Positions 2,236 through 38,630 are shown, counted from the first letter of the stretch. The stretch is DNA of 47,126 bases from an uncultured Muribaculaceae bacterium (GCA_964369245.1 CAYJEL010000001.1:1-47126); one strand, 5' to 3'. Numbers and translations: made by a program. The notes: generated by a model from the sequence alone, not told the origin.

Positions 2236-4158
2236 ATGACAAATAATACTTATGATGAATCAAATATTCAGGTCTTAGAAGGGTTAGAAGCTGTTCGTAA
2301 AAGACCTGGTATGTACATTGGAACGACTAGTGGTAGAGGTTTACACCATTTAGTTTGGGAAATAGTAGATAATGCTATCGATGAAGCTTTAGCTGGTTAT
2401 TGTGATGATATAGAAATTATTATCAATAAAGATAACTCTATAACGGTAAAAGATGATGGTAGGGGTATTCCTACTGGAATTCATGCTAAAACAGGTTTAT
2501 CCACAGTAGAAACTGTTTATACTGTATTACATGCAGGTGGTAAATTTGGTGGAGGAGGCTATAAAGTCTCTGGAGGTTTACATGGTGTTGGTGCTTCTGT
2601 AGTTAATGCATTAAGTACTTATGTTGAAGTAACTGTTTATCAAAATTCTAAAATACATCAAATCAGATTTGAAAATGGTGGAAATACTGTTAAACCTCTA
2701 AGTATTATTGGAGATTGCGATTCAAATAGAACTGGAACAACAGTAACTTTTAAACCAGATTCTGAGATTTTTACTGAAACAACAGTTTATGACTATGATA
2801 TTTTAAAAAATAGAATAAGGGAATTAGCTTTTTTAAATAAAGGATTAAAAATCATTTTATGTGATGATAGAGGCTTAGAGTATAGAAAAGAAGAATTTTT
2901 TTATGAAGGTGGAATTAGTGCCTACATTGAGTTATTAAATAAAAATAAAACTCCAATTCATGAAAATATTATTCATTTAGAAGGTGAAAAGAATGATATT
3001 AATATTGAAATTGCTTTTCAATATAATTCAGGTTTTTCTGAAAATATTTATTCATTTACTAATAATATAAATACGCATGAAGGTGGTACACATGAAGATG
3101 GTGTAAAAAGAGCTTTAACTCGTATTATTAATAATTATGCAAAAAGTAATAAAATTTTAAAAGATAATGATGATTCTTTAACAGGTGAGGATGTTCGTGA
3201 AGGTTTAACAATGATAATTTCTTGTAAACATCCTGATCCACAATTTGAAGGTCAGACTAAAACTAAGTTGGGAAATAGTGAAGTAAGAAAAATTTCTGAT
3301 GATATTTTCAGTGAAGGTTTTGAAAGATTTCTTTTAGAAAATCCTGTCCAAGCTAAAATAATTATTGAAAAATCATTGACTGCTGCTAGAGCTCGTGTAG
3401 CTGCTAAAAAAGCCAGAGAATTAACTCGTAAAAAAACTGAGTCAGATTTTACTAGTGATTGGGGAAAATTAGCTAAATGTTCTTCTAAAAAGCCTGAAGA
3501 TTGTGAATTATTTATAGTCGAAGGGGATTCGGCTGCAGGTGCTGCAAAGCAAGGTAGAGATGCAATTACTCAAGCTATTTTACCACTTAGAGGAAAAATA
3601 TTGAATGTTGAAAAATCTAGATTGGATAAAATATTGGGAAATACTGAAATTAGAAGTTTAATAACGGCCTTAGGTACTGGTATAGGCGATGAATTTAATT
3701 TAGAAAATTGTAGATATCATAAAATTGTTATTATGACGGATGCCGATGTTGATGGTTCTCATATTAGAACTTTATTATTAACACTGTTTTATAGATTTTT
3801 TAAACCTGTTGTTCAAGCAGGGTACATTTATGCTGCTCAACCACCTTTATTTAAAGTTACGCATGGTAAGGTTGTTAAGTACTTCTTAACTGAAGAAGAG
3901 AAAAATGAGTATTTATTAACTTTTGAAGAAAATCAAAGAAAACCTCTAGTAGCTCGTATGAAAGGATTAGGGGAAATGGATAAAGATGAATTAAGTGATA
4001 CTACAATGCATATAGAAAATAGAGTACTTAGAAAAATTACTTTGGAAGATGCAATGTTGGCAGATGAAATATTTGAAATTCTTATGGGTGAAGAAGTTGA
4101 ACCAAGAAGAAATTTTATTGAAGAAAATGCTTTAAATGTAGAAAACTTGGATATATAG
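2236..4158 (+). CDS. gyrB: DNA gyrase subunit B
   Basis: [43 protein letters not shown], and Toprim motifs EGDSAGG and [12 protein letters not shown]. Confidence 0.97.
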
Positions 4159-8085: not shown

Positions 8086-8114
8086 TTGATATATTTATAA
8101 AAATATTATATATT
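8086..8114 (+). promoter_or_regulatory. Sigma-A-type promoter of the SRP RNA gene
   Basis: TTGATA (8086-8091), a 17-nt spacer, then TATATT (8109-8114). The G at 8121 is a plausible +1. Confidence 0.5.
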
Positions 8115-8120
8115 ATATAT

Positions 8121-8191
8121 GCACAACATTTACATTCGAACCAGGTCAGAGTCGGAAGACAGCAGCCTTAAGGGTCTCTGAATGTGTGTGC
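8121..8191 (+). ncRNA. ffs: Small (4.5S-type) signal recognition particle RNA
   Basis: AACCAGGTCAGAGTCGGAAGACAGCAGCC matches the conserved SRP domain IV (E. coli 4.5S ACCAGGUCAGGUCCGGAAGGAAGCAGCC, GGAA tetraloop). The termini GCACA…/…TGTGC and CATTC/GAATG pair, followed by a T9 run (8192-8200). Position next to tadA-dnaX matches B. subtilis scr. Confidence 0.85.
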
Positions 8192-8211
8192 TTTTTTTTT
8201 AGGAGAATTTT

Positions 8212-26658: not shown

Positions 26659-26712
26659 ATAAAGGCAAGAAATTTCTATGACATTTTTTTGTCATGGCGG
26701 AAGGAGATAGTT

Positions 26713-31592: not shown

Positions 31593-34068
31593 GTTAACTG
31601 TTAAAAATTTAAAATTGAATAAAACAAGAACAATTGTAACGATTGTTGGTATTATGTTATCTTGTGCTTTAATAACTGGTTTAGCTGGTTTAATTACAAG
31701 TTTTTTAGAAACTTCGGTGCAAGCGGCAATTAATGATTATGGACATCGTCATGTTACTTTTTATGATGTTCCTAAGGATGAATTAAAATATATTATGAAT
31801 CATAATGATGTTGAAAGTTTTTATTTGACTGAAAATTTAGGTTATAGTATTTTAGAAAATTCAAATAATTATTATAAACCTTATTTAAATTTAGTTGGTA
31901 TGAATAGTGATAGTTTAAATTCTGTTGTAAAGTTAATAGATGGAAGATTACCACTTAATTCTAATGAAATTGTAATTAGTGAGCATATTTCTTATGATGC
32001 TTTAGTTGATTATAAGATCGGTGATGTTATTACTTTAAATTTAGGTAATAGATATTTGGATGATGAGATTATTAATCAAAAAGATTTGTATACTGATTTA
32101 GAAGTTTTTGTTGGAGATAAGAGTAATTCTTATACTGTTGTAGGAATTATGGAAAGATCTTATATTGAAGATTATTCAGCACCTGGATATACTATTGTAA
32201 CTAAAAGTGATGATGTTGTTAGAGGGGCAGATATATCTGTTTATTATAAAAATTCTAATGATTTTATGGAAGTAACTATGCAAATTAATGAAATGAAAAA
32301 TGATAGTGATGATGGTAAGTATGAGACTAGTTATAATAGTACTTTACTTGATTATCAAGGTAGTGGTTTATCTTCATCAACAATGAAGTCAATATACTTT
32401 GTTGGTGGAATAATTGCTTTTATTATTATTGTTACAAGTGTATTTTGTATTAGAAATTCATTTGCTATTTCAATAACTGAAAAAATTAAACAGTATGGGA
32501 TGTTAGCTAGTATGGGAGCTACAACGAAACAAATAAGAAAAAATGTTTTGTTTGAAGGTTTAATTTTAGGAATAATTGGAATTACTTTGGGGATTATTTT
32601 TGGGGTATTAGCTTGTTATATATTGATAATTATAGTTAATTCTTTATTGGCTATGAATCTTAATACAGAAATGATTTTTAGTGTTTCTTATGAGGCTATT
32701 GTAATTAGTGTTTTATTATCACTTGTTACTATTTACTTATCTTGTATTTCATCTGCTTATAAAGCTTCTAAAATAACTGAAATTGAAGCAATTAGGTCAA
32801 GTTCTGAAATTAAGTATAAAAAAATAAAAGCTCCTAAATTTATAAAAAAAATATTTGGAGTTTCTGCTTTAATTTCTTATAAAAATATGAAAAGAAATAA
32901 AAAGAAATTTAGAATTACAATTATTTCTTTAACTGTTAGTATTGCTACATTTATTTCTTTATTTTCTTTTTTAGATATTGGTTTTGGTACTATTGGTGAT
33001 TATTATAAAGATTTAGATTATAATATAATTGTATCTGAAACGGGTTTAACTGATGTTGATTCAAAATTATATGAAGGTATTTTAAATTCAGCGCATATTG
33101 AGAGTTATTCTTATATAAATGAGAAAGCATTCGAAGTTTCTGAAAAGTATTTTACTGTTGAAACTAGTGATGGTATGGAAAGTAGAATAACTATGATTAA
33201 TAGTGTTGGTGAGGAAGAATATTTGAGATATATTTCTTTACTTGGTTACTCATATGATGAAATAAAGGATAAAGGGATATTAATAAATACTGATGCTTTT
33301 GATAATACTGGAAAGCTTTTAGAAGGTATTAAGAATATCAAAGATGATGTTTATTATGTAGATGGATTTGTTAAAGAAGAACATTATCAATTAGAATTAG
33401 TAAAAACAGAAAAAGTTCCGATGGGAATGGAAGATAGGTATAATTCTAATTCACAAATTATTGTTAGTGATGAATTATTTTCTAAGATGAATAGTTCAAT
33501 TGAAATTGGTAATGGTGATATGTATATTAATTCTAGTAATGTAACGGAAACGGTTAAAATGATTAATACTTATGGTACTGATAATGAAATTGATCTTTAC
33601 GTTGTTAATATTGATGATGTTGTAAAAGAGATGAATTCGGTTATTTTAGTTGTATCTATTTTCTTATATGGATTTATAACAGTTATTACTTTAATTGGTT
33701 TAACAAGTATATTTAATACTATTACAACTAATATGAATTTAAGAAAAAATGAATTTGCGATGTTAAAATCAATTGGTATGAGTAAAAAAGAATTTAATAA
33801 AATGATTTTATTTGAAAGTAGTTTATATGGTTTAAAATCATTATTATATGGTTTACCACTTGGTTTATTAGGTGGATATTTAATGTTTATGGCTACTAAT
33901 GTTAATTCTGGAACTAGTGCAATTGCGACTGTTTATAGTTTTCCATTATTAGCGGTAATGATTTGTATAATTGGAGTATTTATTATTGTATTTGTGATTA
34001 TGAAATTTTCGATGAGTAGAATTAATAAACAAAATATTATTGAAACAATTAGAAATGAAAATGTTTAA
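31576..34068 (+). CDS. FtsX-family ABC permease with duplicated FtsX domains and large extracytoplasmic regions (BceB/YxdM-like)
   Basis: 830 aa. Two blocks of four hydrophobic helices, each preceded by a long hydrophilic segment. Overlaps the ATPase gene. Confidence 0.85.
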   Translation: MKILSKLTVKNLKLNKTRTIVTIVGIMLSCALITGLAGLITSFLETSVQAAINDYGHRHVTFYDVPKDELKYIMNHNDVESFYLTENLGYSILENSNNYYKPYLNLVGMNSDSLNSVVKLIDGRLPLNSNEIVISEHISYDALVDYKIGDVITLNLGNRYLDDEIINQKDLYTDLEVFVGDKSNSYTVVGIMERSYIEDYSAPGYTIVTKSDDVVRGADISVYYKNSNDFMEVTMQINEMKNDSDDGKYETSYNSTLLDYQGSGLSSSTMKSIYFVGGIIAFIIIVTSVFCIRNSFAISITEKIKQYGMLASMGATTKQIRKNVLFEGLILGIIGITLGIIFGVLACYILIIIVNSLLAMNLNTEMIFSVSYEAIVISVLLSLVTIYLSCISSAYKASKITEIEAIRSSSEIKYKKIKAPKFIKKIFGVSALISYKNMKRNKKKFRITIISLTVSIATFISLFSFLDIGFGTIGDYYKDLDYNIIVSETGLTDVDSKLYEGILNSAHIESYSYINEKAFEVSEKYFTVETSDGMESRITMINSVGEEEYLRYISLLGYSYDEIKDKGILINTDAFDNTGKLLEGIKNIKDDVYYVDGFVKEEHYQLELVKTEKVPMGMEDRYNSNSQIIVSDELFSKMNSSIEIGNGDMYINSSNVTETVKMINTYGTDNEIDLYVVNIDDVVKEMNSVILVVSIFLYGFITVITLIGLTSIFNTITTNMNLRKNEFAMLKSIGMSKKEFNKMILFESSLYGLKSLLYGLPLGLLGGYLMFMATNVNSGTSAIATVYSFPLLAVMICIIGVFIIVFVIMKFSMSRINKQNIIETIRNENV

Positions 34069-34088
34069 GAAGCTTACGGCTTCTTTTA
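34068..34088 (+). terminator. Hairpin AGAAGC-ttacg-GCTTCT plus short T run after the permease gene
   Basis: Direct read. Overlaps the TAA stop. Confidence 0.5.
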
Positions 34089-35906: not shown

Positions 35907-35934
35907 TTGAATATTTATAAAAGTGTGATAAAAT
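35907..35934 (+). promoter_or_regulatory. Promoter of the SPFH/zinc-ribbon operon (TTGAAT - 16 nt - TGaTAAAAT)
   Basis: -35 at 35907-35912 and extended -10 at 35926-35934. A leader hairpin ACATAA/TTATGT follows. Confidence 0.45.
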
Positions 35935-35981
35935 TAAATTGTAGACATAATATGGTTTATGTATAAGGAAAGAGGTTATTT

Positions 35982-37148
35982 ATGGGATTTATTAAAGCGT
36001 TTACAGGTTCTTTAGGTGGAACTTTCGCTGATCAATGGAAAGATTTTTATCAACCAAAAGTAGGAATTACAGCTACAACAGCAGTTTTTCCTGCAGTTCC
36101 AAATGGAACAAACAATGGTAGAGGAGAAAATACTAAGGGTTCAGAAAATATTATTTCTAATGGAAGTAAAATCGTTGTACCTGAAGGAACAGCTCTTGTT
36201 ACTATGCAAGATGGAGCGATAACAGGATTTATTGCTGAACCAGGAGGATTTATTTTTAATAGTGAAGATCCTAATTCACAATCGTTTTTTGGTGGTGATG
36301 GAATTATTGCTCCATTATTTAAACAAACTTGGGAAAGATTTAAGTTTGGTGGGCAACCAGGCTCTCAACAATTAGCATTTTATGTTAATTTAAAAGAAAT
36401 TCCAAATAATAGATTTGGAACTCAAGCAGAAATTTATTGGGATGATGCATTTTTAGGTACACAAGCAGGAGCAGTTACTCGTGGGACATATACTTTAAAA
36501 ATTGTTGACCCTATGTTATTTCTTAAACAATTTGTACCAGCACAATATTTAGTAGTTGATGCACCTATGTTTGATTTTGCGGACATGGATAATCCTGCTG
36601 GAACTCAATTGTTTAATGAAGTTGTTGGTAGTTTAGCACCGGCATTTTCTAATTATACTAATGATCCTTCTAAAGGAAATAGAATAGCTAAAATTCAAGG
36701 TGACCAAATTGGATTTGCTGCTTCTTTATCGCAAGCAGTTGAAGATGCTTATAAATGGAAATCAGATCGTGGTTTAGTAATTGAAAAAGTTGCAATTCAA
36801 GCTATAGAGTACGATGAAGTAACTAAAGCAATTTTAGCAGATGTTCAAAAAGCAGATGCTTTAATGGGAGCGAGAGGTAATTCATTTATGCAACAATCAG
36901 TTGCTCGTGGTTTTGAAGCAGCTGGATCAAATCCTAATGGCGGTGGAGCTATGGGAATGGGATTCATGGGAATGGGTATGAATGCTACTGGTGGAGCTAT
37001 GGGAGCTTTTCAACAACCAACGCAACAAGCAGCACCTGCTGAAGATCCATATGCAAAATTAGAAAAAATGAAAAAACTTTTAGATGCTGGAGTTATTACT
37101 CAAGAAGATTTCGATAAAGAAAAAGCAGAGGTTTTAGGTAATATTTAA
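35982..37148 (+). CDS. SPFH-fold protein of the YdjI / 'virion core protein-like' (COG4260) type with Gly/Met-rich linker and C-terminal SHOCT motif
   Basis: The N-terminus MGFIKAFTG… and the central region resemble the YdjI family. GGGAMGMGFMGMGMNATGGAMG is a low-complexity stretch, as in YdjI. The tail LEKMKKLLDAGVITQEDFDKEKAEVL is SHOCT-like. Confidence 0.6.
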   Translation: MGFIKAFTGSLGGTFADQWKDFYQPKVGITATTAVFPAVPNGTNNGRGENTKGSENIISNGSKIVVPEGTALVTMQDGAITGFIAEPGGFIFNSEDPNSQSFFGGDGIIAPLFKQTWERFKFGGQPGSQQLAFYVNLKEIPNNRFGTQAEIYWDDAFLGTQAGAVTRGTYTLKIVDPMLFLKQFVPAQYLVVDAPMFDFADMDNPAGTQLFNEVVGSLAPAFSNYTNDPSKGNRIAKIQGDQIGFAASLSQAVEDAYKWKSDRGLVIEKVAIQAIEYDEVTKAILADVQKADALMGARGNSFMQQSVARGFEAAGSNPNGGGAMGMGFMGMGMNATGGAMGAFQQPTQQAAPAEDPYAKLEKMKKLLDAGVITQEDFDKEKAEVLGNI

Positions 37149-38605
37149 TGAGTAATGATGTAGTTAAAAAAGAAGAAACTACTGTTAATATTAATGAAAA
37201 AAAAATATTGAATAGTCATGAAGGGCTTAAGGATGGTCAAAGTAAATGTCCTAAATGTGGTTCTACTGATATAAAACACAATTTAAAAAATGGTAACTTA
37301 CAATGTAATTTTTGTAGACATAGTTTTAAAGCTGAATTAAGTAATGAAATAGATGATATTTCACAGCTTAAAGGAAAAATTGTAGGTACAGGTGCTAGTG
37401 ATATTGTTGCTGATTCTAAAGATTTAATTACTTTTAAGTGTACTAGTTGTGGTGCAGAGGTTGTAATTGATACAAATGAATCATTACAAGCAAGATGTCA
37501 TTGGTGCCGTAATACTTTATCTATTAACCAACAAATTCCTAATGGTGCAGTACCAGATATGATTTTACCTTTTGGAATAGAAAAAGAAGAAGCTAAAGTA
37601 AATATTGAGCAGTTTGTTAAGAAAAGAAATTTTTATGCTCATCCTAAATTTAAAGCTGAGTTTGAGAGTAATAATGTAATTGGTGTTTATTTACCGTATA
37701 TGGTTGTTGATATTAATGCCAATGCTTCATTTAATGGTAAAGGTGAAATTTTAATCCGAAAATATTCAGTAGGTACAGGTGAAGATAGAAGAACATATTA
37801 TGATGCTGATTTATATGAAGTTAAAAGAGATTTTGATATTACAATTGATGATTTAACAATTGAATCTAACAAAGATAAATTAGATGTTAAAAATAAGTAT
37901 AAAACTACTAATATAATTAATTCTATTTTACCTTTTGATACTGAAAATTGTGTTAAATGGGATGCTAATTATTTAAAAGGATTTAATTCTGAAAAAAGAG
38001 ATGTAAACATTGAACAGTTAGATGGAATTTTAGAAGCACAAAGTATTGATATAGCTAAATTTAAAGCTAATGCTAGTTTAACAAAATATAATCGTGGAGT
38101 TAAGTGGGAAAATCAAAAAATTGATATTACAGGTCAAAAATGGAAAGCTACTTATTTACCTGTTTGGTTATACAGTTATCAAGAAATTAAAGGTAGTAAA
38201 AAAGTTTTACATTATGTAGCTGTGAATGCGCGAACTAAAGAAACTATGGGAAGTGTTCCTGTATATGTACCTAAGTTGGTATTTGTATCAATCTTAGTTG
38301 AAATTATGGGGTTAATAGCTATGTTATTTATTGATTTTGATTATAATTTCATATTTTTAATAGCTGGTTTTGTTTATTACTATGTAATATATGCAGGTTA
38401 TCGTAATGATAGTGCTAGACATATTCATGAATCAGATACTAGAGCAGATATAAAAAATTTGGTTACTTATGATAATTTAATTAAACATCAGAAAGGTTTA
38501 TCAAATTCTAGAATAAGTGGACAAAACAATACTTCATTTGGAAATCGAAATGATAAGTTTAAAGTAATAAGTGATTCGTTTGTTAAAAATGATGATAATG
38601 TTTAA
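37148..38605 (+). CDS. Double zinc-ribbon protein with C-terminal transmembrane hairpin (YdjG-like)
   Basis: CPKCGS…CNFCRH and CTSCGA…CHWCRN ribbons, a central globular region, and hydrophobic helices at about aa 365-410. TAATG start/stop overlap with the SPFH gene. Confidence 0.5.
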   Translation: MSNDVVKKEETTVNINEKKILNSHEGLKDGQSKCPKCGSTDIKHNLKNGNLQCNFCRHSFKAELSNEIDDISQLKGKIVGTGASDIVADSKDLITFKCTSCGAEVVIDTNESLQARCHWCRNTLSINQQIPNGAVPDMILPFGIEKEEAKVNIEQFVKKRNFYAHPKFKAEFESNNVIGVYLPYMVVDINANASFNGKGEILIRKYSVGTGEDRRTYYDADLYEVKRDFDITIDDLTIESNKDKLDVKNKYKTTNIINSILPFDTENCVKWDANYLKGFNSEKRDVNIEQLDGILEAQSIDIAKFKANASLTKYNRGVKWENQKIDITGQKWKATYLPVWLYSYQEIKGSKKVLHYVAVNARTKETMGSVPVYVPKLVFVSILVEIMGLIAMLFIDFDYNFIFLIAGFVYYYVIYAGYRNDSARHIHESDTRADIKNLVTYDNLIKHQKGLSNSRISGQNNTSFGNRNDKFKVISDSFVKNDDNV

Positions 38606-38630
38606 AAGATATTTATTTATCTTTTTTTTT
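38604..38630 (+). terminator. Rho-independent terminator after the zinc-ribbon gene
   Basis: AAGATA-tttatt-TATCTT followed by T7. Confidence 0.55.

Follow-up and report, generated by a model that had tools for sequence, protein, structure and literature searches.

A tightly coupled gene pair for an SPFH–SHOCT protein and a membrane-anchored double zinc-ribbon protein: a PspA-free variant of the YdjI/YdjG (SamI/SamG) pair

The two-gene locus

The stretch of DNA analysed here, called the window throughout, is 47,126 nucleotides (nt) long and comes from an uncultured Muribaculaceae bacterium (GCA_964369245.1, CAYJEL010000001.1:1-47126). The part of it that concerns us, from 35907 to 38630, holds a two-gene, tightly coupled operon. 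The first gene, here called gene A, encodes a soluble SPFH protein with a SHOCT tail, and the second, gene B, encodes a membrane-anchored protein with two zinc ribbons. Together they are the SHOCT/long-anchor variant of the YdjI/YdjG pair, also named SamI/SamG, which is encoded by the pspA-ydjGHI operon of Bacillus subtilis. The locus is an ordinary member of that variant and is not tied to the sensing and export genes that adjoin it.

SPFH proteins are membrane organisers found in every domain of life, and their genes are usually paired with a gene for an NfeD protein. The pair described here is of a different kind, and it had been picked out in a preliminary inspection of the DNA made without database searches, the sequence-only reading. 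The two genes which that reading placed at the locus, joined by TAATG, are present as open reading frames (ORFs) at the following coordinates, and the overlap was verified: the TAA of gene A and the ATG of gene B have one A in common (37146-37150).

35982-37148, + strand: gene A, ORF of 388 amino acids (aa); soluble SPFH (Band_7_1) protein with a SHOCT tail, relative of YdjI/SamI
37148-38605, + strand: gene B, ORF of 485 aa; membrane-anchored double zinc-ribbon protein, long-form relative of YdjG/SamG

Gene A, a soluble SPFH protein with a SHOCT tail

The protein encoded by gene A divides into an SPFH domain with the helices that follow it, a flexible linker and a short C-terminal domain.

36042..36926, + strand: SPFH domain and following helices, aa 21-315, from the AlphaFold2 model
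36144-36542, + strand: Pfam Band_7_1 match, aa 55-187
36927..37040, + strand: Gly/Met-rich low-complexity linker, aa 316-353, which includes the conserved motif MGFMGMGMNA
37056..37136, + strand: SHOCT domain, aa 359-385 of 388, two short helices

Both domains pass their Pfam cut-offs. SHOCT (PF09851) scores 30.1 bits against a curated cut-off of 27, and Band_7_1 (PF13421) scores 26.9 bits against a gathering threshold of 24, or 24.2 bits in the search of the whole genome. The Band_7_1 match is marginal and spans about half of the model (profile positions 8-124 of 211). An AlphaFold2 model made from 26 homologues has a predicted local distance difference test score (pLDDT) of 70.7 overall and above 85 in the core. 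Among the regions modelled as disordered are aa 1-14 and the linker, aa 313-353, where the pLDDT is below 50, and the two SHOCT helices (356-368 and 374-386) stand at 88-90. When the model was compared with known structures by Foldseek, it matched HflK/C, stomatin, erlin, prohibitin, QmcA, flotillin and the major vault protein with a probability of 1.00 and E values down to 1.7e-7, the ten best matches extending over 256-345 aligned columns.

No hydrophobic segment was found in the gene A protein, the maximum 19-residue Kyte-Doolittle mean being 1.2, and the protein is therefore predicted to be soluble and to have no transmembrane (TM) segment. It has no cysteine pair of any kind, so that a C-terminal zinc ribbon is absent and SHOCT is found instead. 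The earlier description of the first gene's product, soluble and of the SPFH type, with a linker rich in Gly and Met before the SHOCT tail, is thus upheld by the Pfam scores and by the lack of a hydrophobic segment. In the alignment of the family the MGFMGMGMNA motif is kept, and the Q/P-rich part of the linker varies in length. Homologues are plentiful: 7693 database proteins matched, the best 120 of them with 75-78% identity, and NCBI names them ‘SPFH domain-containing protein’. The architecture has been described before. Eberhardt et al. (2013, PMC3581485) report that SHOCT is most often found with a Band_7_1 domain before it, exactly as in gene A, and they describe neither a conserved neighbour B nor any system.

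Gene A is richer in G+C (0.353) than its neighbours (0.253 +/- 0.033), as had been noticed from the DNA, with the Gly and Ala content of the protein offered as a possible cause. The G+C content at third codon positions (GC3) is 0.113, against 0.129 +/- 0.024 in the neighbours. The excess is therefore confined to codon positions 1 and 2, and amino-acid composition accounts for it, as suspected. Recent horizontal transfer of gene A, to which its higher G+C might point, was considered and rejected because its GC3 is the same as that of its neighbours. On contig C40 the genome has one further Band_7_1 match (L001:636-1420, - strand), which was rejected as a paralogue of gene A, since it appears by eye to be a classical membrane-anchored SPFH protein of the stomatin type.

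Gene B, a double zinc-ribbon membrane protein

The protein encoded by gene B has two zinc ribbons at its N-terminus and a membrane hairpin towards its C-terminus, with a large domain between them and a conserved segment after the hairpin.

37247..37315, + strand: zinc ribbon 1, C34, C37, C53 and C56
37439..37507, + strand: zinc ribbon 2, C98, C101, C117 and C120
37532..38260, + strand: central alpha/beta domain, predicted cytoplasmic, aa 129-371, about 245 aa; pLDDT mostly >90
38267..38404, + strand: TM hairpin, aa 374-419; helices 374-394 and 400-419 with a loop of about 5 residues
38399..38530, + strand: conserved C-terminal module YRN..ARH.YE..T...N...D, given as conserved alignment columns; absent from short YdjG-type proteins

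The family is large, with relatives of gene B in 3355 representative clusters at E<=1e-3 when 1.84 billion representative proteins were searched. Among 38 diverse homologues, C53 is nearly invariant and the other seven ribbon cysteines do not vary. At ribbon 1 the profile of the family matches the TFIIB ribbon 1pft (E 1.4e-4), and at ribbon 2 it matches RNA polymerase subunit P (RpoP; E 1.6e-3). Over the central domain no Pfam or NCBIfam family was found, the only matches of the protein being sub-threshold ones to zinc ribbons.

The AlphaFold2 model of gene B has a pLDDT of 85.5 and a predicted template-modelling score (pTM) of 0.83. In it the central domain is made up of two units, in each of which a helix packs on very long, curved beta-hairpins. 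The positions conserved across the 38 homologues are mostly P, G, W, Y and F and form no obvious catalytic set. A Foldseek comparison of the model with the PDB gave nothing significant beyond the TFIIB ribbon, and the NTF2-like, YpeB-related fold claimed for the central domain of YdjG-type proteins (Ravi et al. 2024) was therefore not confirmed for gene B, though the two units of helix and curved hairpins are compatible with it. Among viral models in BFVD, the fold is matched by two proteins of giant viruses, A0A5K0UBJ7 of Yasminevirus and A0A3G4ZSZ8 of Edafosvirus, with E values of 4e-8 and 1.7e-7 over up to 330 columns, and both are annotated ‘DnaJ-like subfamily C member 3’.

The TM hairpin is strongly hydrophobic, with a 19-residue Kyte-Doolittle mean of up to 2.75, and is flanked by basic residues, K375 before it and R419, R424 and H425 after it. 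From the short loop between the helices and these basic flanks, both ends of the hairpin, and with them essentially the whole protein, are predicted to be cytoplasmic. After the hairpin a strand at aa 432-451, modelled with a pLDDT of 95-98, is predicted to join the central sheet. The layout proposed for the second gene, two N-terminal C4 ribbons, a central domain and a C-terminal TM hairpin, is borne out by the conserved cysteines and by the model, in which the central domain measures about 245 aa.

Another, full-length relative of gene B, 458 aa long and 43% identical, lies on contig C37 of the same genome (119-1495, - strand; L118:119-1495) with no A-type gene beside it. This solo paralogue has the same ribbons, TM hairpin and C-terminal module, and the gene upstream of it is divergent. 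Additional copies were also seen elsewhere, one of them solo (G163) and the other a second copy (L100). Some relatives are longer, at 605-617 aa (P0050 at L005:8001-9854, P0044 and P0014), and begin with an additional domain of ~130 aa that matches Band_7_1 weakly. The idea that these proteins, with their PF13421 match, are fusions of A and B or products of a frameshift was rejected, as they have an N-terminal domain of their own and are preceded by a full A gene. BLASTP found no similarity between gene A and this N-terminal extension.

Relationship to YdjI and YdjG

For comparison, metagenome contigs were searched with the forward primer published for ydjG, and a pspA-ydjGHI locus of the B. 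subtilis type was found in them. Its ydjG, ydjH and ydjI genes agree at their ends with the primers in the literature, and the start of its pspA differs at residue 2, which makes it a close relative and not B. subtilis strain 168 itself.

The gene B family aligns with YdjG of this locus over 312 collinear columns that begin at ribbon 1 and stop just short of the TM segment (hhalign, 99.9%, E 2.4e-32), and both of its ribbons align with the two ribbons of YdjG. The gene B protein by itself (P0002) is found by BLASTP with 23% identity and an E value of 4e-20. The gene A family aligns with YdjI over 257 columns (hhalign, 97.1%, E 6.3e-11), and the gene A protein by itself (P0001) reaches an E value of only 0.021 in BLASTP. 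These alignments support homology to the B. subtilis pair, strongly for gene B and at the level of profiles for gene A, and the YdjI-like and YdjG-like labels first given to the two genes are retained.

YdjG has been described as two zinc ribbons, an uncharacterized domain and a TM segment, and YdjI as a Band-7 domain with a C-terminal zinc ribbon (PMC11237479, PMC8581546). SamI, a soluble protein predicted to form a higher-order oligomer, is brought to the membrane by SamG and SamH (PMC8581546, PMC13713150). Gene A and YdjI both have an SPFH domain of the Band_7_1 class and a low-complexity linker rich in Gly and Met, the two linkers align, and neither protein has a membrane anchor. Gene B has in common with YdjG the two N-terminal C4 ribbons, the whole of the central domain and the TM segment that comes next. 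In B. subtilis, ydjG and ydjI are part of one operon, as are gene A and gene B.

The two systems differ in several respects. The B. subtilis order is G-H-I, whereas here A comes before B and the two are directly coupled. The B. subtilis operon includes pspA and the TPM gene ydjH/samH, and neither is present at our locus or in the assembly. YdjI ends in zinc ribbons (CPNCG...CPNCG) but gene A ends in SHOCT; unlike YdjI, gene A also has an insertion of ~30 residues (aa 26-54) after the N-terminal motif. YdjG is anchored by a single TM segment with a short tail, whereas gene B has a TM hairpin followed by a conserved cytoplasmic C-terminal strand. Identity between the two pairs is only 22-23%. 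The departures from B. subtilis that were recognized at the outset, SHOCT in place of a zinc ribbon, the TM hairpin and the lack of pspA and ydjH, are all real.

Conservation of the pair, and PspA

Two samples were used to follow the pair through other genomes. The first consists of 80 public loci, found with 10 closer gene B sequences and drawn from related genomes, and the second of 299 scored genomes of the class. In the first, a homologue of A lies directly upstream of B in all 79 loci that can be assessed, the 80th ending at a contig edge, and 1-5 nt separate the two genes in 70 of these 79. One of the loci (L108) comes from the genome of an isolate, Peptostreptococcaceae bacterium pGA-8. 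That the genes should be kept as neighbours in other genomes is therefore amply confirmed. The strictly conserved unit is A then B, alone. In the second sample a relative of gene B is present in 32 of the 299 genomes, and in three of the six genomes that belong to the family.

The absence of PspA had been regarded as a notable feature of the locus, and here our conclusion differs. A true PspA, scoring above the Pfam cut-off, was found in just five of the 299 class genomes and in two of the 32 with a gene B relative, so its absence is the rule and the locus is ordinary in this respect. As to the facts, the sequence-only reading was right that neither pspA nor ydjH adjoins the pair. No match to PspA_IM30 (PF04012) was found in the window or in the assembly, which at 90.6% completeness gives no proof of absence; the same 90.6%-complete assembly contains no match to the TPM domain (PF04536) of YdjH/SamH. 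Only one of the 32 genomes has pspA adjoining the pair (G119, L119:3914-6865), in an operon of pspA, a YdjG-like gene and a YdjI-like gene that has no ydjH/TPM gene.

The pairs of the class sample come in two forms. A short B, of about 350-400 aa and with one C-terminal TM segment, pairs with an A that ends in zinc ribbons, the arrangement known from B. subtilis. A long B, with the TM hairpin and the C-terminal module, pairs with a SHOCT-tailed A. Alignments of the long and short B proteins leave no doubt that the two forms are homologous (hhalign, 100%, E 1.7e-56). All eight of the class-sample genomes with long-form B have A directly upstream of it, and the genes of short-form pairs are adjacent in most. 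The short-form pairs, from Erysipelotrichia-like and other small-genome Bacilli, consist of the same two families, mostly in the order A then B and nearly all without PspA. They differ from the pair in the window in that their A-type protein ends in 2-6 CxxC motifs and their B-type protein is tail-anchored by one TM segment, whereas SHOCT, a hairpin and an extra module are found here. This correspondence suggests that the tail of A and the C-terminal part of B work together, although the long and short forms are lineages and not independent events.

A profile search with the short-form B proteins returned only unnamed or ‘hypothetical’ proteins and no named YdjG of B. subtilis. One exception to the two forms, intermediate between them, is a locus (L022:1513-4202, G107) at which the B-type protein has two TM segments and a tail, yet the A-type protein ends in zinc ribbons. 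In another genome (G173, L128:3477-5485) a gene whose product by appearance is TPM-like, and so YdjH-like, immediately precedes that of a short YdjG-like protein whose linker is rich in His, and neither of the two adjoins a gene for a Band_7_1 protein.

A proposed scaffold beneath the membrane

Two-gene systems made of an SPFH oligomer and a dedicated membrane partner are well represented by the SPFH-NfeD pairs (QmcA-YbbJ, FloT-YuaF and FloA-YqeZ) and by HflK/C-FtsH. A and B would likewise be such a combination, and the gene A model superimposes on the SPFH subunits of both the NfeD-type and the HflK/C systems. The SPFH proteins of those systems carry their own membrane anchor, however, and gene A does not. 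Gene B differs from the partner proteins of the SPFH-NfeD pairs in having no NfeD domain and a fold with no PDB match. A search for the NfeD domain gave no match in gene B or anywhere else in the assembly.

The explanation that we favour, with a probability of roughly 0.6, is that the two proteins form a PspA-independent scaffold under the membrane in which B anchors A. Like other SPFH proteins, the gene A protein would probably assemble into a ring or cage beneath the membrane. The TM hairpin of gene B would hold the ribbons, the large beta-rich domain and the C-terminal strand at the cytoplasmic face, where B, presumably by touching A, would recruit the gene A oligomer to the membrane, as SamG together with SamH does for SamI. 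The resulting complex may organise or monitor a patch of membrane, and would do so without PspA and without the TPM protein YdjH/SamH. That the pair may be a membrane-integrity or envelope-stress module, as first proposed, is a reasonable inference.

Several points weigh against such a scaffold. In two-hybrid experiments with the B. subtilis proteins, YdjI makes contact with YdjH and PspA, and YdjG with YdjH, and no direct contact between G and I was reported (PMC8581546); YdjH, the partner of both, is missing here. In the sole published test of a SHOCT domain, the isolated domain did not oligomerize (PMC3581485). The solo paralogue of gene B has no A gene adjoining it, so B may also act alone. 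Finally, the proportions of family and class genomes with a gene B relative make the module patchy and dispensable.

A bolder version of the scaffold is possible but tentative. In this version the SHOCT/long-anchor pair would be a self-sufficient, PspA-free SPFH system and the commonest form of the YdjI/YdjG pair. Gene B would then represent a new class of SPFH partner, equivalent in function to NfeD but with a fold that has no solved relative, and the SHOCT domain of gene A would dock on the C-terminal module that is restricted to the long form of B. Bacillus would have added its links to PspA and to the TPM protein as features of its own lineage, and membrane proteins with a small N-terminal zinc ribbon might also be collected by the scaffold.

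Some of this was known already, since the architecture of gene A is published and the relation to YdjI and YdjG can be recognized, and the locus represents a variant form of the PspA-SamGHI system. The route to the membrane taken by the anchor-less Band_7_1 class is, for its part, known only from SamGHI of B. subtilis. The variant free of PspA and TPM is far more common and very strongly conserved, and it is functionally unstudied. If the scaffold is indeed self-contained, the recruitment of PspA is not the core job of the YdjI/YdjG family. The unannotated gene B family, which NCBI lists as ‘hypothetical protein’, would in that case be worth naming and deserve both a domain model and a structure. 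For the window itself, the value of these results lies mainly in correct annotation.

Alternative roles and the neighbouring genes

The alternative that survives best is a refinement of the scaffold and compatible with it, although we consider it rather doubtful. In this proposal A and B would be a docking platform for membrane or surface proteins that have a small N-terminal cytoplasmic zinc ribbon, gathering or sorting such clients, which here would be encoded at unlinked sites. Ribbon-led genes, those whose products begin with CxxC...CxxC, make up 18 of the 61 genes (30%) that lie immediately downstream on the same strand in the 80 public loci, against 21 of 638 other genes (3%), although the relatedness of these genomes means that the enrichment overstates the independence of the loci. 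One family that recurs downstream (cluster 6) is ribbon-led. A tandem of ribbon-led single-pass membrane proteins is also encoded in the genome under study, on contig C11 (L126:1498-2673 and 2682-3065), and it is only in their ribbons that these resemble large ribbon-led proteins whose genes follow the pair in other genomes. The gene that follows the pair in the window encodes an ABC exporter, however, and is not ribbon-led, and small zinc ribbons are common among the membrane proteins of Firmicutes. The binding of clients is itself putative.

The surroundings of the pair bear on a second alternative, in which A and B would be the output or effector of the adjoining two-component system and ABC transporters, within a local regulon for peptide antibiotics or envelope stress. 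Regulator and kinase genes on the same strand end 76 nt upstream of gene A. A scan found no terminator between the kinase gene and gene A, so that read-through from the one into the other is possible. Four ABC exporter genes lie directly downstream of gene B, and the closest relative has the same ABC genes after its pair. Two other genomes of the family, however, carry the pair in other surroundings, without these neighbours. Nothing is constant across the 80 public loci besides A and B; no two-component or ABC family recurs beside them, and the largest ABC cluster is present in six loci. The neighbours elsewhere are often housekeeping genes such as tyrS, uvrB, whiA, serS and prfA. Nor was a copy of the direct repeat of GTCA half-sites, found upstream of the ABC ATPase gene, seen by eye upstream of gene A. 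A functional tie to the flanking genes as a conserved feature was therefore rejected, and the significance attached by the sequence-only reading to the position of the pair between a sensing module and four ABC genes does not survive, as only the nearest relative shares the ABC genes. The regulon is in our view unlikely.

Less likely again is an accessory conflict system, either an anti-phage module of the abortive-infection type or the membrane chassis of a system that handles toxins, in which the long beta-hairpins of B would act on the membrane when triggered. The patchy distribution of the pair in the family and class would fit such a role. So would its very high conservation, with identities of about 70-78% for A and about 56-63% for B, among metagenome-assembled genomes whose labels place them in different classes or even phyla, a pattern that suggests spread by horizontal transfer. 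The best PDB matches of gene B, none of them significant, include pore-forming MACPF proteins, but at a probability of just 0.01-0.02. Against a conflict system stand the housekeeping neighbours elsewhere, a GC3 like that of the host and the absence of mobile-element genes on either side of the pair in the window. No PADLOC family matched the gene A or gene B protein at E<=0.1, and matches to PHROG cover only the SHOCT tail and the ribbons; assignment to a defence system was rejected on these grounds.

The last alternative, that gene B is a membrane-tethered regulator whose TFIIB-like ribbons act on nucleic acid while gene A controls its release or activity, can draw on the TFIIB- and RpoP-type matches of the ribbons and on the DNA binding raised for YdjG by Popp et al. 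(PMC9239133), but is highly improbable, since those matches fall below family cut-offs and belong to generic protein- or nucleic-acid-binding modules, gene B lacks a helix-turn-helix and any other DNA-binding domain, the nearby genes encode neither a protease nor a means of release, and the largest and best conserved part of gene B is the beta-rich domain and not the ribbons.

Expression signals and other features of the window

Three putative signals for expression can be placed around the two genes.

35907..35934, + strand: sigma-70-like promoter motif, TTGAAT, 16 nt, TAAAAT, with TG upstream; 9/12 matches in a motif scan
35966..35975, + strand: Shine-Dalgarno sequence AGGAAAGAGG, 6 nt 5' of the gene A ATG, read from the sequence
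38604..38630, + strand: terminator-like hairpin of 8 A/U pairs with a 6-nt loop, followed by nine U; weak, from folding

The promoter and terminator that had been thought to bracket the operon exist as motifs, but neither goes beyond chance. The promoter motif falls within the 76-nt gap between the kinase gene and gene A. Promoter-like motifs in the AT-rich region number 38, against 41.1 in shuffles, which is no enrichment, and the assignment is plausible but putative. The same grade applies to the putative terminator, whose hairpin has a calculated folding energy of -5.6 kcal/mol and a z-score of -1.26 and is missed by a terminator scan that requires G-C pairs.

Further upstream, a G+C-containing terminator-like hairpin at 34067-34085 lies between the FtsX-type permease and response-regulator genes and divides the upstream module into two units; there is no comparable hairpin between the kinase gene and gene A. 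Elsewhere in the window, an L31-Firmicutes ribosomal leader at 26676-26706 scored 33.4 bits, barely over the threshold, and the Small SRP RNA was found at 8110-8207 with 57.6 bits.

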